Shown: positions 32,206-64,000, numbered from the stretch's first letter. The stretch is DNA of 64,000 nucleotides from Candidatus Latescibacterota bacterium (GCA_965223905.1 CBDCXV010000010.1:1280001-1344000); one strand, 5' to 3'. The notes: generated by a model not told the origin, from the sequence alone. A program made the numbers and translations.

Positions 32206-32314
32206 ACTGACGCTGTTCAACGCCGGTCTGCAGCCCGGCCCTGCTCTACGACCTGGGACGGGACGCCGACTGGGCGTACTGGTTCGCCCGCCAGGGCCAG
32301 TCCACGCCCGACCG

Positions 32315-44774: not shown

Positions 44775-44807
44775 GGTGGTTTCCAATAGGGAAGCGCTTA
44801 GGAAAAC

Positions 44808-45806
44808 TCACGAAGACAGATCGAGCGACCGTCGAAGGGTCGCGACAAATTTTCCGCGGAATCCCTCGTCATCATCCCTGGACCAGAGAACGGTCGTACA
44901 GTGATTCGTATCGAAGTGGGTCTTTTGCTTCTCGAATTTTCCTTTTTCGCAGATGTAGATCACAGGCTTGTCCAGACCCTCCGCGAAACCGGCCTCCCAG
45001 TACGCGCCATGGTTGTCATGGGTTAGATCGACAATGACGAACTTCGCGTCCCTGATTTGGACCCGCATGATATTATCGATGATTCCTGCCTTCCCAACAT
45101 CGTTCATATCCACAAGATCGTAGCCGATCTCATCTTTCACAGCCGGTTTCAGAACTTCCTTGACAAAGGCTTTGAGATCGGGTTCATCAAACTGCATGGC
45201 GAAGAAACCGTAGTTTCCGGCAAATCTTCCGCGTTTTTCGGCTTCATACTGCTCCCATCCCTCCAGACTGAGATCAATGTTGGTAAACAAAGAGATGGGA
45301 CGTCCTGTAGCCGGATCCATCCCGACGGCAGTACCAAGGGGGTCGGCTTTTAGTGTTTTACCCTCAACCAATTCCTTTGTCAGTCGAATGGCCGCCTCAA
45401 AGTTCGGCGCCCCAATAATCGCATGGAGATGATCTGGAGCAACAGACAAGCTTTCTCCAGTTTGGGAAACCTGATCGCCTATGTACCGGATCAAGTTTGC
45501 AGCCCGTTCATGCGGAGTGGGAAGTCGACAATTCGATAAGAATTCCCTTAGCCATTTTGTGTCTACCATAGAGGGTTGTTTGTTCTCATGTTTCGTGCGC
45601 AATACATGACTTAGACATGCGCGTTGAACTGCTGCCAGCGCATCAGCTTGTTGATCTAACTGACCGCATAATGCCGTCCTGCTTATTGCGTACTGCCCAC
45701 AGGTCGTGCATTTGAACTTGGAGCCATCGAGGCCATCCGCCGGGTAACGCCAGCACCGACCACCATCTTCCTTCTGACAGACAGGATAATTCGCCGGTTC
45801 CATCAT
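44808..45806 (-). CDS. Zn-ribbon protein with C-terminal nucleoside 2-deoxyribosyltransferase-like domain
   Basis: N-terminal Cys cluster (CTTCG); C-terminal FFAMQF, IRDAKFVIVDLT..N.GAYWEAGFA..LDKPVIYIC, HFD. Confidence 0.75.
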   Translation of the reverse strand: MMEPANYPVCQKEDGGRCWRYPADGLDGSKFKCTTCGQYAISRTALCGQLDQQADALAAVQRACLSHVLRTKHENKQPSMVDTKWLREFLSNCRLPTPHERAANLIRYIGDQVSQTGESLSVAPDHLHAIIGAPNFEAAIRLTKELVEGKTLKADPLGTAVGMDPATGRPISLFTNIDLSLEGWEQYEAEKRGRFAGNYGFFAMQFDEPDLKAFVKEVLKPAVKDEIGYDLVDMNDVGKAGIIDNIMRVQIRDAKFVIVDLTHDNHGAYWEAGFAEGLDKPVIYICEKGKFEKQKTHFDTNHCTTVLWSRDDDEGFRGKFVATLRRSLDLSS

Positions 45807-45831
45807 TTTATCATGTAATTCCTGTGCAGCG

Positions 45832-48702
45832 TCACGCCGAGGTGGGCGGTTCCCCGCTGGCAAAGTTCATGGACAACAGTTCCCGCAGCGCCTGGTCCTC
45901 CGAAACATCTACATCCCACCCATAGGCCGCCGCCACAGATGCATCGAGAGCCGAGTGCGCGTCCTCGAGCCACTGAGGGCGGGCGTTGTAGAGGTTGGTC
46001 AGCGTGCGCTTCTTGAGCTCCTTCTCCGCTTCCTCGTCGCGGGGCACGGGGCGCCTGGGATAACCTGCAACAGGCTCCTCCACCCACTCCACCCATTCGG
46101 GCGGATTCAGCCACCGGTCTCTCAGCTCGACCAGCCGTCGGGCTGCGTCGGCAATGGCAACGGCGGGCGGATCATCCGCATAGTCCGTCGCGGGAACGTC
46201 GGGCGACAGCCCCTCCGGGAACGGGTAAGTCTCGAATGTTGTCGTCGGGGTGTAGCGCGGGCGGTCTTCCAGGCTTGTGCCCAGGCGCAGGGACCACGCC
46301 TCGTGAAAGCGGCTGTGCAGGATCCCGAAGGTGGTGTCGTCGTCGCGCGCGATGACGATCAGTTGATGATCAGGACAAACCCGCGCGTCAAGCCAGGCGA
46401 ACAGCCGGTGCTTTGCTACCGTCGGCGTAACGATGTAACGCTGCAGTCCGTCGAGTGCCTCCCACATACCCGGCCTCGGCTCGACGTGCCGCCACCAATT
46501 GGTGCGGTAGGCTTCTCGCCGGTTCCCTTGCCGCTTCGGATAGACGTGCTCCATTGCGTGTCGAAACGGGGCCTCGTAGAGCGCCGCCTCCTCCCGCACC
46601 ATGCTGGATCCGAAATCGACGATCCATTTGTCCGCCGGGCGCCGCGTGACGTCCATGCCGTTCATCCATGGTCCCAGGACATCGGAGTTGGGTCTCCCGT
46701 TCGGGTTGGCCGGCTCCCGCAGCCATTCCCGGGCCTGCTCTCCAGGGACGTCGAAGGGGCCGCCCTTCGTGTCCCCCATGAAGGCGACGCCCATGTTCCG
46801 GTGAAGCCGCCGAGCCTCCGTCAGATCGATGCCCGCCCCGCCGCGCTTCGCGGTCAGGTCGGCGTGAACCTCATCGACAAGTTGGCCGTCGAGTCTCCGT
46901 CCCGACACCGATCCGGCATCCTGCCCCGAGAAGCAGATCAGGGAAACGCGTACCGCGGCGCCGTCGATCACCCACGGCTCGTCGCTCCATGCCTCGAAGA
47001 TCGGACGGCCGTCGATCGCGGTCTGCAAGGCCCTCCGGTTCGCGCCCCCTCTAATTGAATTGGTCGAGACGAGGCCGGCTCGTTTCGCTTTGCCCGCTGC
47101 GAGGTGATCACCGGCCTTCACGAACCAGTAGCAAACGAGATCGACCTCGGCCGGCACGCGGCCTTCGTACGCAGCGAAAATTCTCCCAACGTACTCCTCC
47201 CCGAGGTGGGCGTTGAGGAGCTTGCCGCCGAGAAACGGCGGGTTGCCGATCACCACGTCGGCCTGCGGCCACTCCGGCTCGCTTCCCTCCGGCGACAGGA
47301 TCGCGTCGCGGCATTCGATGGTGTCGAGCGGCTTTAGGATCGGATCGCGCAACTCCCCGAATCCGTTGCGCCGCATCCACTGGATCTCGCCGATCCAGAC
47401 CGACACGCGGGCCAGTTCCGCGGCGTAGGGGTTGATCTCGATTCCCCTGACGTTGGCCGGGCCGACCCGGGGGAATTCGCGCTGGAGGCCCATGGCGTCG
47501 GCCTCCAGCTGCACCCGGTGCTCCAGGTCCTTGAGCGCGTGCAGCGCCAGATAGAGGAAGTTGCCGGAACCGCAGGCGGGATCGAGCACCGTGAAGCCGC
47601 GCAGGCGTTCGAGAAAGGCGCGCAGCAGCCGTTCAGCCTGTCCCCGCTGCCGTGTCCCTGCGGCCCTCGACCTGGTTCCGCCGGCGCGATCGAGAGCGGC
47701 TGCGATCTCCGCCTTCACCCTCTCCCATTCCGCCAGCAGGGGACGGACGACCACGGGCTCGACGATGCGCATGATCTTGTCCCGGTCGGTGTAGTGCGCC
47801 CCGAGCTGCGAACGCTTGTCCGGGTCGAGACCGCGCTCGAACAGGGTGCCGAGGATGGAAGGGTCGATCTCGGCCCAGTCGAGCGACGCGGCTTCGAGCG
47901 CCGTCTCGATCTCCGCCTTCTCGAGGGACAGGGCGGCATCGTCGTCGAACAGCCCGCCGTTGAACCACGCCACTGCCTCGAATCCGACGCGGCCCCCGTT
48001 GGACATCGCCGCGAACAGATCGCGGGCCATGCCGGCGAACTCCTGCGGTTGCCGGCGCGCCTGTTGCAGCATGCGCGTGAACATGTCCCCCGGCAGCAGG
48101 CCCACGTCCTCGGCGAACATGCAGAAGACGAGGCGATTGATGAAGTGCGCCACCGCCTGCGGGTCGTGGCCGCGCTCCCTCAGCGACTGCGCCAGCGCCG
48201 CGAAAGCGGTGGCCGCGCGCTCGGTGAGTGTCTGGCGCGTCTCTCCCGGACGCAGGCGCTCGGGATCGGAGAGCGCCCACTTGAGCTTGTCGCGGACCGC
48301 GGCGTCGGCGAGGTCGTCGATGGCGAACTCGAGGGTTTCGCTGACGCTGTTGGTCCAGTTGGTGCGGATGCGGAACCGCCGCATGTCGGAGACGATCAGA
48401 AGCGGCGGGTTCTCCAGGGCCAGGGCGTACTGCCTGAGCTGATCGAAGGCGGCGTCGAGGTTGGCTTGGCCGCCCTTGTACTCCCAGGCGAAGCAGTGCC
48501 GCTTCCACACGTCGGCCCAACCGCCGACGCCGGTCTCCTTGCGCGCTCCCTTCTCGAAGCAGTAGGTCTCGCCGGTCGGGTCGGCCTCGGCCGGTGTCGG
48601 TTCGCCCAGGAGCCGGCACAAGTCGATGAAGTGCTCCTGCGATGCCGAGCGTTCCTTCAGCTCCGACGCCCGCCACTTGGAGATGAATTCACCCGGGGTC
48701 AT
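45832..48702 (-). CDS. Fused restriction-modification enzyme, MmeI-like (Type IIG/IIL), N6-adenine MTase
   Basis: ADVW...WEYKG nuclease motif, FNGGLF, GAHYT, DPACGSGNF, GNPPF, RYTPTTTFETYPFP, LTNLYN. Confidence 0.9.
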   Translation of the reverse strand: MTPGEFISKWRASELKERSASQEHFIDLCRLLGEPTPAEADPTGETYCFEKGARKETGVGGWADVWKRHCFAWEYKGGQANLDAAFDQLRQYALALENPPLLIVSDMRRFRIRTNWTNSVSETLEFAIDDLADAAVRDKLKWALSDPERLRPGETRQTLTERAATAFAALAQSLRERGHDPQAVAHFINRLVFCMFAEDVGLLPGDMFTRMLQQARRQPQEFAGMARDLFAAMSNGGRVGFEAVAWFNGGLFDDDAALSLEKAEIETALEAASLDWAEIDPSILGTLFERGLDPDKRSQLGAHYTDRDKIMRIVEPVVVRPLLAEWERVKAEIAAALDRAGGTRSRAAGTRQRGQAERLLRAFLERLRGFTVLDPACGSGNFLYLALHALKDLEHRVQLEADAMGLQREFPRVGPANVRGIEINPYAAELARVSVWIGEIQWMRRNGFGELRDPILKPLDTIECRDAILSPEGSEPEWPQADVVIGNPPFLGGKLLNAHLGEEYVGRIFAAYEGRVPAEVDLVCYWFVKAGDHLAAGKAKRAGLVSTNSIRGGANRRALQTAIDGRPIFEAWSDEPWVIDGAAVRVSLICFSGQDAGSVSGRRLDGQLVDEVHADLTAKRGGAGIDLTEARRLHRNMGVAFMGDTKGGPFDVPGEQAREWLREPANPNGRPNSDVLGPWMNGMDVTRRPADKWIVDFGSSMVREEAALYEAPFRHAMEHVYPKRQGNRREAYRTNWWRHVEPRPGMWEALDGLQRYIVTPTVAKHRLFAWLDARVCPDHQLIVIARDDDTTFGILHSRFHEAWSLRLGTSLEDRPRYTPTTTFETYPFPEGLSPDVPATDYADDPPAVAIADAARRLVELRDRWLNPPEWVEWVEEPVAGYPRRPVPRDEEAEKELKKRTLTNLYNARPQWLEDAHSALDASVAAAYGWDVDVSEDQALRELLSMNFASGEPPTSA

Positions 48703-49124
48703 GGGTTCACCTGCAACCCGAGCTTTGTCCGCAAAGAAGTCACGATGCGCAAATCTCCAGCTCTCTCGAATCCTTCATATCTCAAGATGCCGCTGCCCGG
48801 TTCGGGCGGCAAACCAGTGGACTTGAAGACTGCGACGACTGCGGGGAGGGCCCGGTGGACCTTGCCTAATCACCGGTTTCGTTTCGGACTGAGCTACGCT
48901 GGTGAGCGAAAGGTTCGGGCGCCTTGCTTCACCGATTCCCGGTTCTTTGTGCCCTACTCCTCAATTTCTCCTCAGGCGGAACAACGCACACTTTCGCGAT
49001 CCCCTCGATCCTTTCCAAACCCACCCATAATCCCGTTTATCCTGCCCATGCGCTGCCCCCGCTTGGTGGACGCGCCCGTGACCCACTGCGACCCGCACGG
49101 GATTCCATAGCTGCCCAAATTGCG

Positions 49125-49390
49125 ATGAAAACCCGTCACAGAGCTTACGCCTATATCACCAACGGGAGCCGCCTGCTTCTTTTTACTCAACCCGAGGCAC
49201 CGGAAGCTGGCATTCAAGTTCCAGCTGGAACAATTGAACCAGGAGAGAATCCTCAGGATGCCGTGATGCGAGAAGCAAAGGAGGAGACGGGTATAACCGA
49301 GCTCAGATGTGAACGGTTTCTGGCCCAGGATACCCGAGACATGCGGGATTGCGGGCGCGATGAACTACAGTATCGCTGGTTCTTTCATTT
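49125..49390 (+). pseudogene. NUDIX hydrolase, C-terminally truncated (probable former cassette gene)
   Basis: Nudix box PAGTIEPGENPQDAVMREAKEETG; breaks at an attC half-site. Confidence 0.8.
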
Positions 49391-49440
49391 GGGCCTACGG
49401 CAACCCGCTTCCCGGGTTCGCAAACCGGGGATCGTCAGGG
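49391..49440 (+). other. Orphan 3' half of an attC site with degenerate R' (GTCAGGG)
   Basis: ggcctacggcaacccgcttcccgggttcgcaaaccgggg closely matches the attC at 61410-61457. Confidence 0.75.
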
Positions 49441-49490
49441 CAAAACCGGGTTCATGTTTTCGTATATTGTTGAGGGCATGGAGGTCAAGG

Positions 49491-49715
49491 ATGAATGAAC
49501 GAATCACAATCGATCCCTCGATCCGTCATGGCAAGCCGGTGGTGCGGGGGACCCGAGTGCCCGTGCACCGAATTATCGGGAACCTTGCAGGTGGGGCAAC
49601 CCCAGAAGAAGTCTGTGAGGAATATGGCATTACCGACGCGGATGTACGGGCTGCTCTTGAGTACGCTGAGGAACTCGTAGAAGCAGAAGAAGCTCATCCA
49701 CTACCTGCATCCTGA
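49491..49715 (+). CDS. DUF433 antitoxin
   Basis: RITIDPSIRHGKPVVRGTRVPV, EEY.IT.ADVRAALEY; ggagg SD. Confidence 0.88.
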   Translation: MNERITIDPSIRHGKPVVRGTRVPVHRIIGNLAGGATPEEVCEEYGITDADVRAALEYAEELVEAEEAHPLPAS

Positions 49716-49721
49716 ATCGGT

Positions 49722-49780
49722 TTGCAATTCATCATCGACGCTGATCTTCCACGCGCTGTAGCCCGTGTGATCGCCGATAA
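49722..49780 (+). pseudogene. DUF5615 PIN-like toxin, N-terminal stub
   Basis: MQFIIDADLPRAVA directly after DUF433, then truncated. Confidence 0.65.
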
Positions 49781-52452: not shown

Positions 52453-53372
52453 ATGAGGGCGACGTTGCTTCCGATGTTGGTGCTGGCATTCTACCTGATT
52501 GCCGCGGGCAGCTCCGTGCAGGCGCATTGGGGGGATCGGGTGTACCCCATATACGAACTGACGGAGAGCATGCTGGCAGATATCGATGTGACGGATGGCT
52601 TGATCGATGAATGGCAGGAGATTGGGCCGCCTTCAGCGACGGGTCTGGACTTTTCAGTCTTCTCCTTGTGGGAGGAGCCGGAATACGATCCATCCGATCT
52701 GGATTTACGGCTGTGGTTGGGTTGGTCGGCGTCTCAGAGCCGGATCTACGTGGCTCTGGCATGCGTGGACAACGTGGGGGTCAATCGGACCAACTACGAC
52801 CCCGCAGACGAACACTTGCCACTCGATGGATTCGGCTTCTACGTCGATGCCGATCACAGCGGCGGCGATTTTTTTCCGACGGCCGCCCCTGACTAAGTGA
52901 AGAGTACAAGCTGCAGGACGACGCCCAAGTACAGAGTTACGGCATCTCGCCAGATGTACCACCCGGCGAGGATAATATTCTGGGCATGTCGGCTTGGGCG
53001 GACTGGCCGGAGGAGCCGCCCTTTGGCCAAGGATTCGGAATCACACACGGGGAAAACCCGTCTATTTGGGTTGTCGAGTTTTACCTGACGCCGTTTGACC
53101 TCTTTGTGTATTCGGGGGCGGAAGAGAGTGCCGTCTCGGCCCTGTCCGCCGGCAAGGTCATTGGTTTCAGATGTCTGGTTAACGATGCCGACGGCGGCGT
53201 TTTATTCACGGAGAATTTCAAGAGATACCTTCTGCCCGCGATGGGTCTGGACGCACACCTAGAGAACGAAGTCAACGCGGATTCGTTTGCTGATGGGGTT
53301 CTGATCGGAGCAGAAGGTACGGTGGTCGAAGATCTCACCTGGGGCCGGATCAAGGCGTCGTTGGACAGATGA
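52453..53372 (+). pseudogene. Secreted sugar-binding-like protein with WGRIK tail; frameshift near 52893
   Basis: Signal peptide, DGLIDEW, DLDLRLWLGW, VDADHSGG; second frame VEFYLTPFD...TVVEDLTWGRIKAS. Confidence 0.65.
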
Positions 53373-53467
53373 TTGCGGCAGTGCCTGTCAGGGGACTTGA
53401 CCGCCGTAAGCAATACCACCGTGTGGGAGTATCTGATTACGACCGTTCAGCCAAATACGTACCATCG

Positions 53468-53532
53468 TTTCGGATAAGTAACCCTCGGGCGGTTGTTATC
53501 CGAACAATTGGTTCGGGTACAATCAGTTAGGC
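53468..53532 (+). other. Putative integron attI-like site heading the cassette array
   Basis: First GTTAGGC core (53526-53532) has no upstream attC hairpin; it is preceded by ttcggataa/ttatccgaa and ccgaac/gttcgg inverted repeats. Confidence 0.55.
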
Positions 53533-53865
53533 GAAGGCATAAGAAAAAATGGATGGATTTGGTGGAGTATAGATCATGAGAGGGTGTTGGAGAGTTCGGG
53601 CTGGCGCTTTGCAGTGGAGGAGCATTTACGGAGATGGTCGCCTCGTCGCACGTGATTTCCCAACCCCGTCCGGCGCGCTAATACCGCTTGGGCGTTGCGT
53701 TTTACCTGGTCAAGAAATGATGAAATCAATGGGCAGTTGGGGAGATCGGGACCTGCGGATTGGGAGACCGACGAAAGATGGAGGGCTGAGGAGGGGCGCC
53801 GGACGGCCTCTCCACCACCCAAGCCCGAGAGTTTCTCCCATCGTGGTCGATCCGAGCAGGCCCTC
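53533..53865. other. ORF-less cassette A (candidate ncRNA or promoter cassette)
   Basis: No credible ORF; paralog of 54924-55255. Confidence 0.7.
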
Positions 53866-53949
53866 GCCTAACACCTGTTCCCCCGGCTTCGGGCCCTGCG
53901 GGCCCTCCGCCAAACCGCTGTGCGGTTCGGGGGCACTGAGACGTTAGCC
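53866..53949 (+). other. attC 1
   Basis: GCCTAAC...GTTAGCC, 84 bp. Confidence 0.9.
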
Positions 53950-53953
53950 GCAA

Positions 53954-54721
53954 GTGGCATTACAACTGACCCATTCCGTGACCAACATGCTGAGCGAGAT
54001 CTACCGGACGAGTTTCGAGTGGGCCAAGCTGGGTGGCCATATCATCGAACACCGTTTTGGAGTCACCGTTTACAACTTGGACCACCCTGAGTACAACGAG
54101 AATAACTGCCTTTGGTATTTCGATCCAGGATTGGCGGATGAGTTTACTTTCCAGGTGGTTGTGGCGGAATTCGAAAGCCTGGGTGTGAGCTGCTCTCAAT
54201 GGGTTCCTTCCCCTTCCGCCAATCTGGATTTATGTGACAATTACTTCCGTGTTCATGAGATGGCTGATTCACCAGGAGAAGGCTTATTGCTCGATCTTGA
54301 TAGGGAATACCACGCTGACGCGAGAATCTGCGCGAAACGCAGCAACAAGCAATCCCTTGCGCAGGTCTATTCCTTGAGTGGCCAGAGATCAACTAGCACT
54401 GTCACGAGGAACAAAGCCTTATCTCTTTTGGGGATAGCGAACTACGAATCGTATGTTTGCTACTGGGATGGGGAACTGGCGGGCAGAGCTGGACTGCTGA
54501 GGGTTCCGGGAAAAGTCGCTCGATTGAAGAGCATTTTCGTCGGCGCCACATTTCGCCGTCAGGGAGTTGCTAGCAGCCTGATAAGGGTGATCGCCACCAA
54601 AGCGAGGGAACTGGGGTACCGCTATCTAGCGTCCGAAGTAGACCCTTCCAACGAGGCGTCGTCGGAATGTCATCGAAAGGTAGGGTTCAAAACCGCAGGG
54701 CTTGTTCACGCGTACAAATGA
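53954..54721 (+). CDS. GNAT-family acetyltransferase (cassette)
   Basis: FVGATFRRQGVASSL; N.AS..CHRKVGF. Confidence 0.85.
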   Translation: MALQLTHSVTNMLSEIYRTSFEWAKLGGHIIEHRFGVTVYNLDHPEYNENNCLWYFDPGLADEFTFQVVVAEFESLGVSCSQWVPSPSANLDLCDNYFRVHEMADSPGEGLLLDLDREYHADARICAKRSNKQSLAQVYSLSGQRSTSTVTRNKALSLLGIANYESYVCYWDGELAGRAGLLRVPGKVARLKSIFVGATFRRQGVASSLIRVIATKARELGYRYLASEVDPSNEASSECHRKVGFKTAGLVHAYK

Positions 54722-54839
54722 CTCGGAGATGGACATCACGCCTATTCCTCGGAGTGAAAGATCAAAACCAGTTGTGTACGTTGTGCCGGCTTTTTAAGGC
54801 CAACCGCGGTTTCTTCGCGTCGAAGGCCAAGCCACCAGC

Positions 54840-54923
54840 GGCTAACACGCCGGGCTGCGGCTCCGGCCATCCGGCCTTCGCCCAACCCGCTTCGCGGGTT
54901 CGCAGCCCACGAAAGCGTTAAGC
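54840..54923 (+). other. attC 2
   Basis: GGCTAAC...GTTAAGC, 84 bp. Confidence 0.9.
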
Positions 54924-55255
54924 GAAGGCCAAGGAAAATTTGATTGATTTGGTGGAGTATAGGTCATGATAGGCTGTTGCGGAGTTCGGGGTGGTCCCTC
55001 GCGGTGAGGAAGCATTTGCAGAGATGGGCGGCTCGTCGCACGTGATTCCCCACCCCGTCCGGCGCGCTAATACCGCTTGGGCGTTGCGTTTTACCTGGTC
55101 AGGAAAAGACGAGATCAATGGGCAGTTGGAGAGGTCGGGACCTGCGGATTGGGAGACCGACGAAAGATGGAGGGCTGAGCAAGGGCGCCGGACGGCCTCT
55201 CCACCGCCCAAGCCCGAGAGTTTTCTCCCATCGTGGTCGGGCAGAGCAGGCCCTC
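54924..55255. other. ORF-less cassette B (paralog of A)
   Basis: Colinear with cassette A, with long identical blocks and 1-bp indels. Confidence 0.7.
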
Positions 55256-55340
55256 GCTTAACACCTGTGTCCCCGGCTCCGGGCCCTGCGGGCCCCTCGC
55301 GCAACCGCTTCGCGGTTCGGGGGCACGGAAGACGATATAT
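55256..55340 (+). other. attC 3 (R' = GATATAT)
   Basis: GCTTAAC...GATATAT; body resembles attC 1. Confidence 0.85.
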
Positions 55341-55432
55341 GACATGGGTTGTCACAGTACCAGTGAAATTCGACAGAGGCAAAGCTGGCACGGTTGAAAT
55401 CATGAGCCTGCAGGCGCTGGAGAAAAACTGAC

Positions 55433-55924
55433 GTGGATCGCGTAGCCGTATTCGCAGATGTACAGAATGTTTACTACACAGTTAAGCAGCAACATAATTG
55501 CCATTTCGACTATGGTTCTTTCCTCAGGGAGGCGACAGCCGGCCGGAAACTGGTGAAGGCAGTAGCCTATGCTATTGACAAAGGCGACAGAAAGCAGGCC
55601 CAATTTCAGAAAATTCTGAAACGGCTCGGTTTTGAGGTAAAGCTCGCGCCTTATATTCAGAGAGCTGACGGCTCAGCCAAAGGGGACTGGGACGTGGGCA
55701 TTACGGTCGATATGTTGGAGTACGCAGATCGCGTGGATGTCGCTGTCCTGGCTTCAGGTGACGGAGACTACGCGCCTGCAATTGACAAGCTAATCAAGGA
55801 ATCCAAGGTATCCGTCGAGGTGTACGGTGTCCCAGGACTAACTGCTAGTCGTCTAATCGAATCGGCGACGCGATTTGTGCCAATTCAAGGAGATCTGTTG
55901 CTGCCTATTCCCACCACGTGGTGA
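55433..55924 (+). CDS. NYN-domain (LabA/DUF88) protein (cassette)
   Basis: FADVQNVYY, KGDWDVGITVD, SGDGDY, VEVYGV. Confidence 0.9.
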   Translation: MDRVAVFADVQNVYYTVKQQHNCHFDYGSFLREATAGRKLVKAVAYAIDKGDRKQAQFQKILKRLGFEVKLAPYIQRADGSAKGDWDVGITVDMLEYADRVDVAVLASGDGDYAPAIDKLIKESKVSVEVYGVPGLTASRLIESATRFVPIQGDLLLPIPTTW

Positions 55925-56021
55925 CGTGGAAGCGACACTGTTGCAAAGCCATGCACGCTAACGCACTCTCGCGTCGCTACCTCTCTGCGTTGATCAGCCT
56001 TGGAGCAATCATACCCACGTC

Positions 56022-56111
56022 ATATATCACAGCAATTCACGCTGCCGCCATTCGGCGCTTGGCCTTCGGCAAGTCGCTTTCGCGACTTCGTGAATTGTGA
56101 GAACGTTACAT
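56022..56111 (+). other. attC 4 (R'' = ATATATC)
   Basis: ATATATC...GTTACAT; caattcacg/cgtgaattg L boxes. Confidence 0.85.
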
Positions 56112-56154
56112 GAAATGCTTGATAGATATCTGCGATAGACGCTGACAACACGAG

Positions 56155-56784
56155 ATGGACGTAAATCTTCTCTCATCGCGACTTGCCTCGGAATTGGGCT
56201 CGAATAGACTCCTCGTAGCCGCACTCGATGGTCCCGGCGGAGCTGGAAAGTCAACCATCGCCAGGAAACTAAGCGAGAGGTGTAATCTCATCTCAATCGT
56301 TCACGGGGATGACTTCTATGCTCCAATGGAGGAGCATGCGAGAATGGCTCTAACGCCTGAAAATGGTTACATGAGGTATTTTGATTGGGCGAGAATACGG
56401 AGTGAGCTTCTTGAACCCTTATCGCGTGGAGATCGAGCTCGCTACAAGCGCTATGATTGGGGGAGCAACCAGCTGGCGGAGTGGGTTGATCAACCGGCTG
56501 AGGGCATCATCCTGATCGATGGGGTCTATTCATTTCGGCCCGAATTGAGGAAATTCTATGGCTACTCCATTTTCGTCGACACTCCGAAAGCCGAATGTCT
56601 GGATAGGCTGGTCAAGCGAGGTGAAAACACAGACGAATGGATTCGGAGATGGAGGGCAGCGGAAGATTACTATCTGACGCATATAGACACTGCCAGTGCT
56701 GTTTCCGTCGTTGTTTCAGGCATAGGAAGCGCTGGAGCATCGGATCCGATATCGCGACCGAGGATATCCGCGCACTTCATGTAA
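56155..56784 (+). CDS. Uridine-kinase-like P-loop protein (cassette)
   Basis: DGPGGAGKST, HGDDFY, IDGVY; stop codon lies inside the R'' ATGTAAC. Confidence 0.85.
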   Translation: MDVNLLSSRLASELGSNRLLVAALDGPGGAGKSTIARKLSERCNLISIVHGDDFYAPMEEHARMALTPENGYMRYFDWARIRSELLEPLSRGDRARYKRYDWGSNQLAEWVDQPAEGIILIDGVYSFRPELRKFYGYSIFVDTPKAECLDRLVKRGENTDEWIRRWRAAEDYYLTHIDTASAVSVVVSGIGSAGASDPISRPRISAHFM

Positions 56785-56859
56785 CACCGTGCCCCCGGCT
56801 TCGGGGCAAAGCCCCTTAGCCCAACCGCTACGCGGTTCGGGAGCACTGAAACGTTAGCC
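56779..56859 (+). other. attC 5
   Basis: ATGTAAC...GTTAGCC, 81 bp. Confidence 0.9.
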
Positions 56860-56929
56860 GAAATGTCGGTTTGAGGCTTACATCATTGCCTCGAGTTGTG
56901 ATTCAACAGAATCAGAAGGAGATGGTCCC

Positions 56930-58642
56930 TTGATAGGTGATTTTGATGTCGATCCGATCACAGGGCGCCTCGTTCTGTGGTGCCGGAGCATTTCCGGAGA
57001 AACCTGGTTGAAAATTACGGAGCCCTCAGGTGAGATCATTGGGGAAGTACCGCCTGAATTTCTTCCCCATCATCCGCGTTGGGCTCCAGATGGACTTCGT
57101 CTTACGTTTTCTGGGAACGATGGCCGCATCGGTGTCTATGAGCTATCTCAGAATGACATAAGGGTCGTCTACGAAGATCAATCCATGCAAGCGGGGTTCA
57201 GCCAGTGGTCGCCAAACGGCACAAGCCTCGTGTTTTCTGCCTACGAAAAGCACAGTACCGAGCAATTGAATAAACGGCCACCTGACATTTTTCACCTCAC
57301 ATTGGATAGCGGCAAACTTGATAGATTGACCGCATCGAAGGACAGTGTGGACAGGTTTCCAAATTGGTCCCCATCCGGTGACCTGATTGCATTTCATCGG
57401 CAAAACCTGGAGGAGCTTAACAAGCCTAAGAAAGTGCATCTATTTGATCTTCAACGTCAAAGAATATCCTTGCTCCTGCCCGAGGCAAATGGTAACCGAT
57501 TTGGTCGATTCCCCTGGTCACGTGACGAAAGCTGGTTTGCACTTCACGTGTCCGACGAGAAGGAAGGGACCGTTCACGTTGTAGATCTTACGGGCCGAGA
57601 TTCCGGGTGGATCTATGAAGATGGGCCTGTGAAAGAAGGTGCATTTTCAAACTCGACGAACAGGCTTCTCTGCGTCAGACCCGATGAGCTTGTTTGGGTG
57701 CAGTTTCCCGTAGGCCGCGTAGATTCACGCATCAGATTGGATTCCGGGGTTAGCGTGGCGAAGAACCTGACTTGGTATCAAATCGCCTTCAGAGCCGACA
57801 GCGATACCGTCTTTTTTCTTGGAACAGACCATAAGGTTTACCGCTGGAAAGAATCTGAAGGATGCACTGTCGTAGCTGAGCATACCGAACCCGTACCGAG
57901 TTTTAGGCTTGAGGAATTTACGGTTCCTGCTTCGGATGGTTTAGCTCTTCCAGCACAGCGGTTGGTTCCGCCGTCTCCACGAGAGCTCGCTGTTCTGTAT
58001 GTGCATGGTGGGCCTGGAGGCAGCCTCGATAGAAATGACTCATGGGCTTTAGGGCTGCTTCGCCAGGGATTCGAGATTGTGCGCGTGGCTTATAGGGGCT
58101 CTACCGGCTTCGGCGAGGACCTCGATCGAGCGAACACCGGGGTCGCCGGGGTCGCAGACGTTCAGGATGTATTAGACTGTGGAATCTACTGGCAGCAACA
58201 CTTTAGTACAGGCAGGAGAATCGCTCTGTTCGGTAATAGCTATGGCGGGTTTCTAAGTCTCCTTGCCCTGGCAGATGCATCTTCACCATTCGTAGGTGGG
58301 ATCTCCACGTGCACTTGCACAAGTCTTCGAATCATGCGCCTCCATCATGATAGATTCCTTCCAAGTAGTCCAACGGAACGCGAGAAAGCATTAGTTGAGC
58401 GATCCGTATTGACACATGCTACCCATATAAAGAGGCCAATCCTGCTGGTTCATGGCGCGCTTGATACCGTCGCGACCACAAGCGAAATGCAGCACGTCGA
58501 GAAACTCATTAATGACTCTGGCGGCAACTGTACGCTAATCGTCTTTGGCGACGACACACACAGTTTGGCAAAGCACCGCGAAGAAATATACGAAAAGGCT
58601 ATCCAATTCTATGAAAAGTGTTCAACGCCTGGACAGGATTGA
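56930..58642 (+). CDS. S9 prolyl-oligopeptidase-family protein with TolB-like propeller (cassette)
   Basis: WAPDG and WSPNG repeats, HGGPG, YRGSTGFG, GNSYGG, HGALD, DDTH. Confidence 0.88.
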   Translation: MIGDFDVDPITGRLVLWCRSISGETWLKITEPSGEIIGEVPPEFLPHHPRWAPDGLRLTFSGNDGRIGVYELSQNDIRVVYEDQSMQAGFSQWSPNGTSLVFSAYEKHSTEQLNKRPPDIFHLTLDSGKLDRLTASKDSVDRFPNWSPSGDLIAFHRQNLEELNKPKKVHLFDLQRQRISLLLPEANGNRFGRFPWSRDESWFALHVSDEKEGTVHVVDLTGRDSGWIYEDGPVKEGAFSNSTNRLLCVRPDELVWVQFPVGRVDSRIRLDSGVSVAKNLTWYQIAFRADSDTVFFLGTDHKVYRWKESEGCTVVAEHTEPVPSFRLEEFTVPASDGLALPAQRLVPPSPRELAVLYVHGGPGGSLDRNDSWALGLLRQGFEIVRVAYRGSTGFGEDLDRANTGVAGVADVQDVLDCGIYWQQHFSTGRRIALFGNSYGGFLSLLALADASSPFVGGISTCTCTSLRIMRLHHDRFLPSSPTEREKALVERSVLTHATHIKRPILLVHGALDTVATTSEMQHVEKLINDSGGNCTLIVFGDDTHSLAKHREEIYEKAIQFYEKCSTPGQD

Positions 58643-58662
58643 GCTTTACAGGTCCACACAGC

Positions 58663-58746
58663 AGCTAACACATGGGTCACGGCTTCGGGCCATACGGCCC
58701 TTCGCCCAACTCACTTCGTGAGTTCGTGACCCATCAAACGTTATAC
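58663..58746 (+). other. attC 6
   Basis: AGCTAAC...GTTATAC; atgggtcacg/cgtgacccat. Confidence 0.9.
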
Positions 58747-58757
58747 GCCCCAACAAG

Positions 58758-59507
58758 ATGCTGGAGGAACAGGTGGCCGGAAGTAGAGATGATCTCAGAG
58801 AGGCGGTAGAGCGCGGCGACCTCTCCACTGTCAAACGGCTGTTACATACGGAGCCAGGTCTTCTCCACGAGTCCATCCCTCCATGCGATGATCGCAAACA
58901 ACGAGGCCAGATTCTCAGATACCGACCGATGACGCTCGCCGCCGTGGAGTGTCAGACAGAAATTCTCTCTTTTCTGATTGCCGAGGGGGGCGATGTGATG
59001 GAGTACAGCAATTTTCCACTCTGTCGAGCATCACTCTACGACCGTTGTATTCCAACTCTGGAGTTACTGGTTCAGCATGGCGCAGAGGTAAATCGAGTCG
59101 GTAATGACTACGGTCCGCCGTTGATATTCGCGTGCGAAGGAATGGCCCTCGATTGCATCGCATGGTTGCTGGACAACGGCGCGGCAATCACAGGGACTGG
59201 TCCGAGTTTATCTGAAACCGTGTCTTGGAATGCCCTCAAACATGCGGGCTTCTTCAACCGGAAGTGTTCGGGCATGCTTGATTTGCTCCTCGAGCATGGC
59301 GCTGACGTCAACAGTTCAGTTGTTGATGAGGTTGGCGGAGATCCTGAGACTACGGTACTGCACAATGTCGTGGAAAGCGGGGATATTGCTGGCGTGGAGC
59401 TCCTGCTTACCCATGGGGCTGACCAAGATGCCAAAAATGGCAAGGGACAGCGCCCGGTCGAGGTGGCTCGGGAACGCAAAGTCAGAGAACTACTAGAGAA
59501 CATCTGA
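58758..59507 (+). CDS. Ankyrin-repeat protein (cassette)
   Basis: Repeated LL.HGA.VN and PL..A motifs; KNGKGQRP. Confidence 0.85.
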   Translation: MLEEQVAGSRDDLREAVERGDLSTVKRLLHTEPGLLHESIPPCDDRKQRGQILRYRPMTLAAVECQTEILSFLIAEGGDVMEYSNFPLCRASLYDRCIPTLELLVQHGAEVNRVGNDYGPPLIFACEGMALDCIAWLLDNGAAITGTGPSLSETVSWNALKHAGFFNRKCSGMLDLLLEHGADVNSSVVDEVGGDPETTVLHNVVESGDIAGVELLLTHGADQDAKNGKGQRPVEVARERKVRELLENI

Positions 59508-59516
59508 GGTTGGAGC

Positions 59517-59607
59517 GCATAACCGCACGTTTGGCGATGCGGCGCTTAGCGCGCCTCGGCCTTCGGCAACCCGCTAAGCGGGTTCGCAAACCGGCAACCC
59601 GTTAGCG
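59517..59607 (+). other. attC 7
   Basis: GCATAAC...GTTAGCG, 91 bp. Confidence 0.88.
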
Positions 59608-59662
59608 GCAATGGAGTTCAGGCCTGGCATGTTCCTCTGGCCAGTCATCAGGAGGCACCAAG

Positions 59663-60148
59663 ATGGAGAATATAATCCTTTCGTTGCAGGGTTTCTCTGT
59701 GTTCCTGCAAATCGCTTTCCTAGTCACTTTGATAGCAATCGCACAGACTCTTCGACGCTCAATTGGAATTTGGAGCCCCTCTTGGATTGTTATCTTTTTC
59801 TCTCTGAAATATTTGGGGGAGTATGCTAATCCCTTCCTGATGAAACTGCTGACTGAGGAATGGACGGCGTTAACAGTCCCAAACGCGCCGGTCACCTTAG
59901 GGCAGTTGTTTGTATTTCTCAGTTCCGCTCACCTGATATTCATACTGCTGGGTGCTTTCGGCCTCCTCGCCCTGGTCTTGTCGGACCTATCCCATTCTTT
60001 GTGGGGCGCAGACGACATACACCCCTCACGTTGGTTTCAGTGTTTCGAGTTGGTCGGCCGTCATCGACTCGGATTCGGGTTGGCTACGGTGCTGTTGGCT
60101 GTAGCGCACCCTGCCCTTCTGGTGGGCCTTCTGTTGAGTAACAATTGA
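59663..60148 (+). CDS. Hypothetical membrane protein (cassette)
   Basis: aggagg SD, about four hydrophobic segments, fills the cassette. Confidence 0.7.
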   Translation: MENIILSLQGFSVFLQIAFLVTLIAIAQTLRRSIGIWSPSWIVIFFSLKYLGEYANPFLMKLLTEEWTALTVPNAPVTLGQLFVFLSSAHLIFILLGAFGLLALVLSDLSHSLWGADDIHPSRWFQCFELVGRHRLGFGLATVLLAVAHPALLVGLLLSNN

Positions 60149-60165
60149 GACTGGCAGACCACAGC

Positions 60166-60247
60166 CGATAACACCGTGCCCCTGGCTCCGGCGCCTGCGC
60201 GCCTACGCGCAACCGCTTCGCGGTTCGGGGGCACTGAGACGTTAGAA
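60166..60247 (+). other. attC 8
   Basis: CGATAAC...GTTAGAA, 82 bp. Confidence 0.88.
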
Positions 60248-60344
60248 GAAATGGAAAAAAGAATCAGCGCTTAAGTAAGAAATCGCCTGAATAAAGGTAG
60301 AGGTACGATATATTCGCCGTTCAGTTTTTAGGCAGGAGTTTTTA

Positions 60345-61304
60345 ATGAATAGCAAGGCTAGTATCGTAGATGAGTTTTTGCTTAAAGGGGTCATCGGTAT
60401 GAGCAGGGCGATCGGTAAGAATCGTATGTCTGGCCATCCAGGCGCTGCGATGCTTGCTGCATATTTCTTTTGTGTTGAGAATGCCCTGTCAGACGAGGTT
60501 CAGGCCGAGGTCTATAATCTCGTGAGACGCATGGTCAACTCAGAATCAATGTGGTTCAGCAGAGATGGAGAATCTTCAACCAATGAGATCTTCTTTTCTA
60601 CCAAACCAGATCAGAGACCAAACGCGGATCTAATCCCGTCTGTTGCCACTGCACTAGAACCCAGTATCACCGAATGTCGGGATTCAGGACACAATACTAT
60701 CTTCGCGTCGTTAGTACTGAAGGCACTGCACACCGCGCCACATTATGCATTTCCTGCGATTATTGAAGGTATCATAAACTTGCTCAAAGCTTTTGAGGGA
60801 CGTGGGCCGGGATGGGCACGTGTACCAGGTAATGAGAAATTAGCAGATCCCCGTGAGTTTTCGGTACCTCAAGAACTGGATGATCCTTCCTATGAGAGCC
60901 ATATCGACATGATCGAAGCAGTATCCCGCTATGTCGTACCAGATAACTTCGCCAAAAAAGGCGTTGGTGGGCCGATCCATGTCATAGATCATGCCGTAGC
61001 TCTGTTAGATCTGCACGCGTTGGGGTATTCTTCGTTGGCGAATAGAGGACTGGCAGCTCATCAGCAACATATGAAGTTGTGGCTGGGCCTCCCTAAATTT
61101 CCGCAAGCTGAAAACAGCTACTCCGTGAAATCGAAGCACGATCCTCGCGCATTGGACTACTGGCGTGAGAAGATAACCATAAAAGATGGTGGCGGTGATG
61201 AACACCGACTGAAGATTCTCTATGGCGCGCACCGTTTTGCCGAGTGCATTACAGACGTAAACAAACGTCGAAGTTTTCTTGAAAGTGCGGCGCACCTGTT
61301 TTGA
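60345..61304 (+). CDS. Hypothetical helical protein with spaced His motifs (cassette)
   Basis: aggag SD; GHPGA, GHNTIF, HVIDH, EHRLK; fills the cassette. Confidence 0.7.
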   Translation: MNSKASIVDEFLLKGVIGMSRAIGKNRMSGHPGAAMLAAYFFCVENALSDEVQAEVYNLVRRMVNSESMWFSRDGESSTNEIFFSTKPDQRPNADLIPSVATALEPSITECRDSGHNTIFASLVLKALHTAPHYAFPAIIEGIINLLKAFEGRGPGWARVPGNEKLADPREFSVPQELDDPSYESHIDMIEAVSRYVVPDNFAKKGVGGPIHVIDHAVALLDLHALGYSSLANRGLAAHQQHMKLWLGLPKFPQAENSYSVKSKHDPRALDYWREKITIKDGGGDEHRLKILYGAHRFAECITDVNKRRSFLESAAHLF

Positions 61305-61370
61305 AAATGCGCCTAACGGCGAGCGTTGTTGGCTCTCTTTTTCTTTTACAGAAACTAAATATGCCACTTC

Positions 61371-61457
61371 TTCTAACACATCCATTTACGCTACGGCGCT
61401 ACGCGCCTTGGCCTTCGGCAACCCGCTGCGCGGGGTCGCAAACCGGGGACGTTAGAG
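61371..61457 (+). other. attC 9
   Basis: TTCTAAC...GTTAGAG, 87 bp. Confidence 0.9.
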
Positions 61458-61991
61458 GCCATGCGGCCAGACAAGAGGACAATCGCAAATGAGGCTTGGG
61501 AGAATCTGACGATGCTGGAAGAGGGTGAATCCGTCCAAGGTTGTGTCAATCCCGTTGTGCGGATTGGAGATACCGTGCGCAGGCCTATCCATAGCTGGAC
61601 TCCAGCCGTCCATTCCTTGCTGCACTACTTGGAGGCGGTTGGCTTTTCAGGATCTCCCCGTGTCCTCGGATTCGACGAACTGGGAAGAGAGGTGCTTTCG
61701 TTCATCCCAGGGGAAGTTGCTCTGCGACCATGGCCGGAGGTGATGGGTGAGGAGAAGGGCCTCGCTGAGGTCGCCCGTTTTCTCTCCAGATATCACAATG
61801 CCGTGAAAGACTTTGAGCCACCAGAGAATGCTGAATGGTATGTTCCCATGTGACGTGGCGACCAGGAATGACCATCCGACACGGGGATCTTGGACCCTGG
61901 AATACTATCTGGGAAGGGCGAACCTTAAACTGGAGTTGACCCGATTTCGTGGACACTTCATTTCTTGGAGAAAGAAAGGAGATGTCCAACC

Positions 61992-62306
61992 ATGCCGAAA
62001 TCACATAGCCCGTATCCGCCGGAATTCCGGCAACAGATGGTTGAGCTCGTACGGGCGGGTCGTAGCCCGGAGGCGTTGGCCAAGGAATTCGAGCCGTCCG
62101 GGCAGACGATCCGCAACTGGGTGATCCAGGCCGAACGCGATGAGGGGGTGCGTCGCGACGGGCCGAGCCGCCCCGAACAGGAGGAGCTGCGGCGCCTTCG
62201 CCGTGAGAACAAGCAACTGCGTATCGAACGGGGGATCCTGGCAAAAGCCACGGCCTGGTTCGCTCGCGAGGCCGACTCGGGGTCCGGCCCGTCTACGAGT
62301 TCATGA
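61992..62306 (+). CDS. IS3 OrfA
   Basis: YPPEFRQQMVEL HTH, EELRRLRRENKQL zipper; AAAAG slip site at 62243-62247. Confidence 0.9.
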   Translation: MPKSHSPYPPEFRQQMVELVRAGRSPEALAKEFEPSGQTIRNWVIQAERDEGVRRDGPSRPEQEELRRLRRENKQLRIERGILAKATAWFAREADSGSGPSTSS

Positions 62307-63187
62307 GAGCGCACCAGGCCGACTTTCCGGTGTTCACGATGTGCCGCGTGCTGAAGGTGTCCCCCAGCGGCTACTACGCCTGGTTGAAGCGCCCGCCGTC
62401 GGGTCGCACTCGGGCCGATGCGGTGCTCAAGGCGCGCGTCGAGCAGATCCACCAACGCTCCCGAGGCACTTACGGGGCGCCGAGGATCCGGGCCGAACTG
62501 GCCGAGGAGGGGCGCGGCGTCAGTCGCAAGCGCATCGCCCGATTGATGCTCGAGCTCGGGGTGCGTGGGGTATGCGGGCGGCGCCGGATCTCCACGACCC
62601 GCCGCAGCCGGCAGGGCCGGGTCGCCTCCGACCTGGTCAACCGGGTGTTTTCGGCCTCGGGCCCGAATCTGCTGTGGGTTGCCGACATCACCTACCTGCC
62701 CACCGCTTCGGGTTTTTTGTATCTGAGTGTGGTGGTCGACGCCTGGAGCCGCCGGGTGGTGGGCTGGGCTATGGCGAGCCATCTGCGTACGCAGCTGGTG
62801 CTCGACGCCCTTGACATGGCCCTGTACCGGCGTCGCCCCCACTCGGTAATCCACCACTCCGATCACGGCAGTCAGTATACGGCCCTGGCCTTCGGGCAAC
62901 GCTGTCGCCAGGCCGGGGTGCGCCCGTCGATGGGATCGGTCGGTGACTGCTACGACAATGCCCTGTGCGAAAGCTTTTTCGCCACGCTGGAAAGGGAGTT
63001 GTTGGATCGTCATCGGTTTGCTACCCATGCCGAGGCCCGGCTAGCTGTTTTCGAGTACCTGGAAGGCGGGTACAATCGCCAGCGGCGGCATTCCGCCCTG
63101 GGACAACGGTCTCCCGTCAACTACGAGAGATATCACCAATCAGAGAGTGTAGATCCAAACGCAAAACTGTCCGTGAAATCGGGGTAA
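62303..63187 (+). CDS. IS3 OrfB DDE transposase
   Basis: YGAPRI, WVADITY, HHSDHGSQY, DNALCESFF, YNRQRRHS; ATGA overlap with orfA. Confidence 0.93.
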   Translation: MRAHQADFPVFTMCRVLKVSPSGYYAWLKRPPSGRTRADAVLKARVEQIHQRSRGTYGAPRIRAELAEEGRGVSRKRIARLMLELGVRGVCGRRRISTTRRSRQGRVASDLVNRVFSASGPNLLWVADITYLPTASGFLYLSVVVDAWSRRVVGWAMASHLRTQLVLDALDMALYRRRPHSVIHHSDHGSQYTALAFGQRCRQAGVRPSMGSVGDCYDNALCESFFATLERELLDRHRFATHAEARLAVFEYLEGGYNRQRRHSALGQRSPVNYERYHQSESVDPNAKLSVKSG

Positions 63188-63562
63188 CCTCAAACGGGGT
63201 AATCGACTGGGACTTTGCTGAACCAGGTGATGCTCTCTGCGATGTTAGTCAGTTTGCTTGGTATGCGGTGCCTCTCCGAGGAGAAGACCACTGGAGAAAG
63301 GCTGGATTTTCTGATAAGCCTGATCTCAGGGCCAGACTAACCGTACTTTCTGACACCTATGGTACGGACTCCAAAGCAATCTTGGACACCCTATGCAATC
63401 TGCAATTGGAAGAGTATCGCAGGACCGAGACTCTGGGCAGGCAGGGACTCCTCCCCTGGTCCATCTTCTACGAACGTGGGGATCTTGCGGAACTCTCAAA
63501 AGAAAACACGTGGCTGAGAGAGAATTACGATTCGCTTGCCGTATAGAAGCGGTCCGCACGTC

Positions 63563-63658
63563 TTCTAACACGTCCACTTGCGCTGCGGCGCATATGCGCC
63601 TTGGCCTTCGGCAACCCCTCGACAAGCTCGGGGTTCGCAAGTGGCGAAAACGTTAGGT
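63563..63658 (+). other. attC 10
   Basis: TTCTAAC...GTTAGGT; ccacttgcg/cgcaagtgg. Confidence 0.9.
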
Positions 63659-63689
63659 GCCATCTGAAAGATTCCACTGTGGAGGACTC

Positions 63690-64000
63690 GTGAAAGGATT
63701 CGAATTGTCAGAGAGGTTCTTCCGGGAGATTGGGCTTCCCACCATTGAGCAACGATTGCCCGGGTGTGTCCCGAGACTGGCAGTGGGCGTTAGTGGAGGC
63801 TCGCAAGCGCACAAGAACGACGATGCAGTGTCTCGCGATCACGGTTGGGGGCCGAGATTCACGGTGTGGTTTGCCAAAGACGATTTCGATGATCACAGTG
63901 AGCGTCTACAGGAAGTGCTGGACACGCTGCCCAATGAGTATGAGGGATTTCGATGGGAGGATCCACGGGCCAGGACCTGTGGTGTAATCGAAATCGGTAG
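63690..64000 (+). CDS. DUF4037-like (nucleotidyltransferase-fold) protein, partial, cassette 11
   Basis: ggagg SD then GTG; MKGFELSERFF...GGSQ...DDAVSRDHGWGPR; runs off the window; absent from the ORF track. Confidence 0.75.
   Translation, partial: MKGFELSERFFREIGLPTIEQRLPGCVPRLAVGVSGGSQAHKNDDAVSRDHGWGPRFTVWFAKDDFDDHSERLQEVLDTLPNEYEGFRWEDPRARTCGVIEIG

Follow-up and report, generated by a model that had tools for sequence, protein, structure and literature searches.

A probable chromosomal integron-type cassette array with an attI-like head and no local integrase in Latescibacterota-related DNA, and a candidate integrase in a relative

Integrons are defined by an integrase whose unique additional domain reads the extrahelical bases of the folded attC site. 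According to the available text of PMC2727003, canonical attC sites carry two or three extrahelical bases, which lie on the R''-L'' arm by definition. The VCR attC sites have three of them, an R''-L'' arm of 34 nt versus an R'-L' arm of 31 nt, and a large, branched variable terminal structure (PMC2727003, same portion). A cluster of attC sites lacking an integron integrase is termed CALIN in IntegronFinder (PMC9668308, available text). The DNA analysed here is a stretch of 64,000 nt (CBDCXV010000010.1:1280001-1344000), referred to as the window; positions are counted from its first letter. With a probability of about 0.8, positions 53423-64000 are the beginning of a chromosomal integron-type array: an attI-like segment at its head, then ten complete cassettes and part of an eleventh, with no local integrase. 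The host lineage is probably Latescibacterota, since Latescibacterota loci have the same attC family, a homologous attI-like head and several of the cassettes. A description of integrons in Latescibacterota was not found in the literature, judged from titles, beginnings of abstracts and listings.

Cassette array and attI-like head

The array consists of plus-strand genes, each of them followed by an imperfect palindrome of 81-96 nt. The G+C content at 53.5-64 kb is 52-57%, compared with 62% for the whole window. An earlier note, made from the sequence of the window alone, had described inner motifs shared by these hairpins, and both occur far above chance expectation: AACCGCTNCGCGGTTCG (≤1 mismatch) has 4 matches in the window versus 0.01 expected, and GGCCTTCGGCAACCCGC (≤3 mismatches) has 6 versus 0.68 expected. 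Four of the latter are located in the array and one in a relic site at 49392, and the one at 47238 is probably a chance match.

For a systematic search, the covariance model R1 was built from 27 aligned short-form attC sites (6 from the window, 21 from related genomes) with a structure comprising the R box, the L stem and two sub-hairpins. The unfiltered scan of the entire window at E≤10 yielded 27 matches. Ten of them, with E≤1.3e-4, all lie on the plus strand, the first beginning at 53859 and the last ending at 63669; for the remaining 17, E is 0.29 or higher and the score does not exceed 11.6 bits. Four of the ten lie outside the training set and are all of a long form with three sub-hairpins (56015-56122, 33.5 bits; 59510-59618, 21.0 bits; 61364-61468, 28.3 bits; 63556-63669, 46.4 bits). 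The scan thus gives exactly the ten hairpins that had been claimed, plus one decayed relic at 49381-49444. Applied to 5 kb of plasmid R100, R1 ranks the attC of aadA1 first, on the coding and thus correct strand (25.1 bits, E=3.7e-7), and the runner-up reaches 8.6 bits. That R1 picks out this textbook site is one of several grounds for reading the hairpins as attC. Rfam, which has no family for attC, gave no matches, either in the window at gathering thresholds or in 53300-64000 at E≤1, and tRNA and tmRNA genes were not found in the window.

Each unit is made up of TTRRRY, the cargo, the attC and a G, and the crossover point, G|TT, is that of classical integrons. As had been claimed, each attC closes one gene or an ORF-less cargo: it is found 3' of one plus-strand open reading frame (ORF) in eight cassettes and of an ORF-less stretch in two. 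The head, the cassettes and two associated elements are as follows.

49381-49444, plus strand: relic of a long-form attC of which the 3' half is left, R' decayed to GTCAGGG, at a distance of 4 kb upstream from the array
53423-53529, plus strand: attI-like head, whose ~90-107 nt are conserved up to the first core, G|TTAGGC (G at 53526)
53527-53943, plus strand: cassette 1, ORF-less; attC 53866-53949, 86.2 bits
53944-54917, plus strand: cassette 2, GNAT acetyltransferase 53954-54721 (Pfam Acetyltransf_1, E=6.1e-15); attC 54840-54923, 66.7 bits
54918-55334, plus strand: cassette 3, ORF-less, paralogue of cassette 1; attC 55256-55340, 88.6 bits, R' variant G|ATATAT
55335-56105, plus strand: cassette 4, NYN-domain protein 55433-55924 (Pfam NYN, E=1.1e-37; PADLOC NYN, E=2.1e-14); attC 56022-56111, 33.5 bits, R'' variant ATATATC
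56106-56853, plus strand: cassette 5, P-loop nucleoside/nucleotide-kinase-like protein 56155-56784 (Pfam AAA_18; NCBIfam kinase models only under their cut-offs); attC 56779-56859, 95.7 bits
56854-58740, plus strand: cassette 6, S9 prolyl-oligopeptidase-family hydrolase 56930-58642 (Pfam Peptidase_S9, E=3.5e-25); attC 58663-58746, 85.8 bits
58741-59601, plus strand: cassette 7, ankyrin-repeat protein 58758-59507 (Pfam Ank_2, E=1.4e-18); attC 59517-59607, long form with three sub-hairpins, 21.0 bits, E=1.3e-4
59602-60241, plus strand: cassette 8, 161-aa protein 59663-60148; attC 60166-60247, 101.4 bits
60242-61451, plus strand: cassette 9, 319-aa protein 60345-61304; attC 61371-61457, 28.3 bits
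61452-63652, plus strand: cassette 10, APH-like phosphotransferase gene, broken twice; attC 63563-63658, 46.4 bits
61931-63192, plus strand: IS3-family insertion sequence inside cassette 10, orfA 61992-62306 and orfB 62303-63187
63653-64000, plus strand: cassette 11, 5' part, with a gene that starts at 63657 and runs past the window end

The distribution of the attC family was determined by a genome scan with a 24-nt attC pattern, which gave 24 loci. The family is present with near-identical inner sequence (consensus TAACACCGTGCCCCCGGCTTCGGGCCATTCGGCCCTTCGCCCAACCGCTTCGCGGTTCGGGGGCACGAAAACGTTA) at 23 of these 24 loci, which were fetched from public genomes. The remaining one, L002 from Vulcanimicrobiota, was discarded as a chance pattern match, as it has no TAAC/GTTA context and no R1 match. 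The 23 loci are titled Latescibacterota or Latescibacteria, except for three metagenome-assembled genomes titled Gemmatimonadota. These three are 92-99% identical to Latescibacterota array DNA (pairs L024/L007, L006/L012 and L001/L016), and the titles probably differ in labelling, not in biology. The lineage-specific attC proposed earlier is therefore supported by all 23 loci. In the related loci, R1 detects 150 sites at E≤0.01, of which 124 are unique, and the sites occupy one strand within each locus. Up to 27 unique sites are found in one chromosome region of about 28 kb in a relative.

The core sequences and the cassette boundaries carry marks of recombination. In the window, R'' reads RYYYAAC and R' reads GTTRRRY in 9 of 10 sites each, the exceptions being ATATATC and GATATAT; across the 133 unique family sites, TAAC is found in 114 and GTTA in 117. 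The R'' extension, i.e. the 10 nt upstream of TAAC, was compared with cassette starts in 105 consecutive site pairs from the window and the related loci. Its mean match is 6.9/10 to the start of its own cassette and 3.9/10 to the next start. The own start matches better in 85 pairs, the next one in 8, and 12 are ties (Wilcoxon p=1e-15); within the window, the own start is favoured in 9/9, and two inverted repeats found there reflect the same pairing. Pairing with the own start and not with the next one is a mark of site-specific recombination at G|TT.

Several cassettes recur in other genomes. Cassettes 9-10 are 98% identical to OZ244619.1 (L010/L020), where other cassettes are located on both sides, and cassette 9 is also 87.6% identical to L011. 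Cassette 11 is 99% identical to positions 3696-3346 of L008 in OZ242214.1, where a 336-aa ORF is located behind a different attC. In each case, the homology breaks at GTTA. Cassettes that are 98-99% identical in different contexts point to recent movement somewhere in the lineage. The identity itself may reflect recent transfer or close kinship, but the differing neighbors argue for movement either way. A comparison of cassette order with relatives thus shows different neighbors and the presence of the hairpin family in the relatives; together with the R''/R' cores and the own-start complementarity, it bears out the proposed cassette array. An apparent 1.2 kb cassette indel between L024 and L007 was not used as an instance of cassette gain or loss, as its junctions lie away from GTTA.

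The hairpins are GC-rich and placed after genes, which would also be expected of ordinary intergenic repeats such as REP-like elements or terminators, unrelated to site-specific recombination. This explanation is hardly credible in view of the RYYYAAC/GTTRRRY cores in strict single orientation, the R'' extension complementary to the start of its own cassette, the between-genome homology that breaks exactly at GTTA, and the family model that detects a genuine attC. A terminator scan gave 5 terminator-like sites versus 10 expected, so the hairpins are unlike intrinsic terminators.

The segment directly preceding the array has ~80% identity with two places in OZ242214.1, namely 8499-8591 of locus L017 and 6454-6344 of locus L008. 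In all three loci, the homology stops at CAATCAGTTA, the crossover point. At L017, a divergent integrase gene (7477-8358) starts 60-140 nt from the segment, and the cassettes behind the segment, whose attC sites are of the family found in the window, include the NYN cassette and the ORF-less one, the latter twice. At L008, it abuts an unrelated gene and heads an array without integrase, as in the window. The position of the segment 53423-53529 suggests that it is an attI-like site. The first cassette gene after the L008 head, GNAT-like, is apparently interrupted by a transposase-carrying insertion at about 4560-5960, going by a reading of the sequence.

No tyrosine recombinase had been seen upstream of the first core, and the searches agree: Pfam Phage_integrase (PF00589) matches none of the 45 main ORFs upstream and none of the 15 in the array. 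IntI1 of R100 was used as a phmmer query (E≤1) against the 2807 stop-to-stop ORFs of at least 80 aa in the window and the 24 loci, and its sole match is located in L017. The L017 integrase, used as a query against the same ORF set at E≤10, matched itself only. The description of the array as an integrase-less cluster (CALIN) is thus correct in that the window has no integrase; it is not a bare attC cluster, as the attI-like segment at about 53423-53529 precedes the first core. The upstream neighbors of the array are genes for an unknown secreted protein and a TonB-dependent receptor. Two consecutive plus-strand ORFs of 147 and 128 aa (52453-53372), which have no family match, are located directly upstream of the attI-like head. 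The 147-aa ORF has a signal-peptide-like start, and the two may be one gene split by a frameshift.

Cassette contents and partial decay

The ORF-less cassettes 1 and 3 are paralogues of each other and of two copies in L017; they share repeat families, and cassette 3 is 88% identical to L017 9571-10035. About 340 nt are conserved in five copies (window 53527-53870 and 54918-55260; L017 9615-9960 and 10033-10370; L018 9565-9965), which are located near array heads in two genomes. A 123-aa ORF in cassette 1 was rejected as coding, as the same frame stops after 13 codons in cassette 3. The cassette contains long-range complementary blocks, e.g. CCGTCCGGCGC with GCGCCGGACGG, with one compensatory change. 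In the alignment of the five copies, double changes occur at 16 of 91 predicted pairs, and many G-U pairs are formed on the plus strand. In a test for structured RNA, the covariation term was unfavorable, and the single-sequence z-scores were 0.38 (plus) and 0.29 (minus). The element could be an RNA or regulatory cassette. The proteins of cassettes 8 (161 aa) and 9 (319 aa) have no match in Pfam, NCBIfam or PADLOC.

Around the NYN cassette, GTT/AAC is replaced by a variant core, G|ATATAT with R'' ATATATC (55334-55340 and 56022-56028). It leads to a core-triplet mismatch in both flanking sites, and an inverted repeat connects the start of cassette 4 with its own R''. The variant is also found at about 10440 in L017 and at about 2585 and about 1830 in L008. 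A GATA core occurs in 6 of the 133 family sites. In two genomes it has been passed on together with the NYN cassette, and in L008 it is also found on another cassette, so that at least two different cassettes carry it. At L017 11100-11150, an NYN cassette is found without an attC of its own; its R'' half-site is fused to the end of a short-form attC (…ATATAT|ACGGAAGACGTTACC), a junction that may be an aberrant recombination product.

The phosphotransferase gene of cassette 10 is a pseudogene, disrupted by a frameshift and an insertion sequence. Each half has a weak Pfam APH match. Compared with L010, a 1-nt deletion is located near 61844 in a C run (476/480 identical, one gap); the L010 counterpart is an intact 273-aa ORF, and its insertion site is empty. 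The IS3-family element has Pfam HTH_Tnp_1 and rve matches, a terminal inverted repeat, and a target duplication of AAC, or of AAAC if the element is one base shorter. Since one cassette gene is both frameshifted and hit by this element, the array is partly decaying.

Further remnants are found upstream. The relic attC has one mismatch to GGCCTTCGGCAACCCGC and a weak R1 match (9.1 bits), and its flanks match cassette DNA of L014 and L022. The ex-cassette remnants at 49114-49778 comprise part of a NUDIX ORF that matches L014 cassette DNA, the relic itself, and a DUF433 gene that matches L022 DNA beginning just after an attC.

A fossil array, in which a past integron assembled the cassettes and the integrase has since been lost from a now static and decaying region, would account for the lack of an integrase in the window, the disrupted cassette 10, the decayed relic with ex-cassette genes at 49.1-49.8 kb and the two variant-core sites. 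It is nevertheless improbable, as the attC sites are intact (up to 101 bits against R1), the attI-like head is conserved up to the crossover, and the cassettes that are 98-99% identical in other genomes occur there in different contexts.

Other genes of the window were annotated as well. Upstream of the array, 44437-48702 carries genes of defense type: a HicB-like antitoxin is encoded at 44437-44811, a protein that weakly matches a TIR effector at 44808-45863, and a type IIG restriction-methyltransferase at 45832-48702 (PADLOC E=1.6e-303). The S41 peptidase gene found at 41863-43782, which is chromosomal, matches a short contig with 99% identity, and further matches do not exceed 68%. A DDE transposase fragment is located at 31801-32676 in a stretch of low G+C content (24-32 kb, 56-57%). 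A 3208-aa surface-type protein with fn3, cadherin, Calx-beta and PL14 domains and an FlgD_ig-like C-terminus is encoded at 16175-25801.

Predicted attC fold and candidate integrase

Minimum-energy DNA folds were predicted for the 133 unique family sites. The predicted bottom-strand fold comprises an R box of 4-5 bp, an asymmetric internal loop, an L stem of 9-11 bp and a three- or four-way junction. To the internal loop that follows the R box, the R'-L' side contributes about 5 nt and the R''-L'' side 0-2 nt; in 89/133 sites, 2-4 nt are unpaired 5' (R'-L') and none 3'. A multibranch tip is predicted for 126/133 sites. All ten sites of the window fold as a stem with a branched tip, as had been suggested, but the tip carries two or three small hairpins and not always the two of the original description. 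Both cores are canonical in 101 sites; 82 of these have a shorter R''-L'' than R'-L' arm, 13 have arms of equal length, and in 6 the R''-L'' arm is the longer one (medians 13 nt for R''-L'' and 16 nt for R'-L'). Two or three extrahelical bases on the R''-L'' arm were not found in the predicted folds; a site has at most one single-base bulge on the 3' side (50 across the 133 sites). The aadA1 attC, folded as a control, has two 3'-side single-base bulges.

The bottom strand is predicted to be more stable than the top strand in 104/133 sites. GNA triloops are confined to the bottom strand, where they make up 90 of 328 hairpin loops; among the 337 hairpin loops of the top strand there are none. 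Hairpins of the d(GCGAAGC) type with GNA loops are unusually stable, which could bias folding toward the bottom strand. As the crossovers map to R', the bottom strand would be the recombined one, provided that the enzyme cleaves the AAC strand as IntI does.

The integrase encoded at L017, i.e. outside the window, has 293 aa and 34% identity with IntI1 (phmmer E=7.6e-46). Its best sequence match in the PDB is VchIntIA (2a3v) with 158 bits, versus 127 bits for a XerA-like protein from an archaeon. Foldseek likewise gives 2a3v as the best match to the predicted fold (mean pLDDT 82.6; E=2.7e-15, TM 0.49-0.54). An N-terminal SAM-like domain (PF13495) is followed by PF00589, and the catalytic residues R146, K171, H277, R280, H303 and Y312 (IntI1 numbering) are invariant in 11/11 aligned sequences. 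In the alignment, residues 179-238 of IntI4 face 18 residues of the L017 protein, and residues of about 196-248 of IntI1 are mostly opposite gaps. The ~40 residues missing from this alignment correspond to the IntI-specific additional domain, which, judged by sequence, is absent.

The additional domain is also absent from nine homologues. Among the best 120 database matches, 15 have 76-97% identity with the L017 protein; beyond these, identity falls to ≤65%, save for two partial matches. The seven near-full-length homologues (at least 98% query coverage, >290 aa) have 293-314 aa and are too short for the insertion. The short form is kept across homologues and is therefore not a one-off deletion.

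Mobilization in trans by such a domain-less IntI relative is put forward as a tentative explanation, with a chance that falls somewhat short of even. A tyrosine recombinase encoded elsewhere in the genome would act in trans on the attI-like site and would cut out and insert cassettes in the form of folded bottom strands. The likeliest enzyme would be an orthologue of the 293-aa L017 integrase, whose divergent gene adjoins the homologous attI-like site in OZ242214.1. The missing additional domain would fit attC sites that are short of the usual extrahelical R''-L'' bases. A single integrase could serve several attI-headed arrays, the one in the window among them. Action in trans is made plausible by OZ242214.1, in which two homologous attI-like heads are found and an integrase adjoins only one of them.

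A broader proposal, held slightly more cautiously, is that Latescibacterota carry a distinct integron branch. Its IntI relative would never have had, or would have lost, the additional domain, one integrase would serve several attI-headed arrays in trans, and the attC sites would be co-adapted. The features of such co-adaptation would be a lack of extrahelical bases on the R''-L'' arm, in place of which the cleaved arm would carry a T-rich bulge of 3-5 nt, and a branched tip whose GNA-triloop mini-hairpins favor the bottom strand.

A number of observations weigh against an array that is mobilized in this way. An intI gene adjoining and divergent from the array is found neither within the 53.5 kb upstream nor in the array up to the window end at 64000. 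The association of integrase and array is known from one locus, L017, and the other 22 family loci have no recombinase within 10 kb. The L017 protein stays under curated cut-offs, with 223 versus 265 bits for TIGR02249 and 211.7 versus 220 for NF040815 (XerA). The arm asymmetry is known from predicted folds alone, and 13 sites with equal arms and 6 with a longer R''-L'' arm do not share it. A sigma-70-like promoter was not found near 53300-53600 (3 in the region versus 6.2 expected), although the consensus used does not extend to the promoters of the phylum. Finally, the pseudogene in cassette 10 and the two variant GAT/ATC cores mean that part of the array may be inactive.

Some of these points would also fit a classical integron, in which a canonical IntI with the additional domain is encoded elsewhere and moves the cassettes, and the Xer-length recombinase of L017 serves another purpose or is degenerate. 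The integrase is associated with the array at one locus only and stays under the TIGR02249 cut-off; R1 recognizes a canonical attC, so a canonical IntI might accept the present sites. Moreover, PMC9668308 (available text) treats the additional domain as what defines IntI and, citing Messier and Roy 2001, as required for recombination. This explanation is nonetheless rather unlikely. The L017 gene is found at the expected place of intI, divergent and 60-140 nt from the attI-like segment, and its product retains all catalytic residues. The 15 close homologues, of which the near-full-length ones are equally short, speak against a decayed remnant. The nearest solved relative is an integron integrase and not XerC or XerD, and no canonical IntI was found in 460 kb of array-containing loci.

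Comparison with known systems

The present data document that Latescibacterota share a large pool of cassettes, some of which are 98-99% identical in different genomes. If a working cassette system with differently shaped attC sites is indeed run by an IntI-like enzyme that lacks the additional domain, integrons will have to be defined more broadly, and there must be a second structural way of choosing the strand. Unrecognized integrases may then exist for many attC clusters of uncultured phyla that count as integrase-less, and software that relies on the additional domain to define integrons would list every such array in that class. IntegronFinder-type criteria would probably not call the L017 integrase an IntI, and the supplementary tables of large surveys may list such arrays as CALINs.

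In function, the array is a sedentary chromosomal integron cassette array. Like the V. cholerae superintegron, it is chromosomal, with mostly single-gene, co-oriented cassettes, attC sites that are highly similar within the lineage, a crossover at G|TT, diverse cargo mostly of unknown function, and insertion sequences inside the array. In contrast to the superintegron, it has no adjacent intI, its host belongs to Latescibacterota, and the candidate integrase is devoid of the additional domain. The branched tip is not new in itself, as VCR sites are branched as well (PMC2727003, available text); unlike in VCR, the R''-L'' arm is the shorter one in 82/101 predicted folds.

The array resembles a CALIN in having ten attC sites and no integrase nearby. 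It differs in that a conserved attI-like head has been kept and that the same head adjoins an integrase in a relative. That integrase is similar to IntI1 and VchIntIA in its identity of 34-35%, its best sequence and fold matches, its PF13495 and PF00589 domains and its full catalytic set; it differs from both by being ~40 residues short, without the additional domain.

Recombinases of the XerC/XerD type act on folded single-stranded DNA during the integration of CTX phage. The L017 enzyme is likewise of Xer length and may act on a folded hairpin substrate. Unlike the Xer systems, the arrays have integron architecture, and evidence of a dif-like site or a phage was not found here. The departures from the known kind are thus an attI-like head without intI, a reversed arm asymmetry with scarce extrahelical bases in the predicted folds, a heritable variant core and a domain-less integrase in a relative. 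The combination of this attC geometry with a domain-less IntI relative is probably new.

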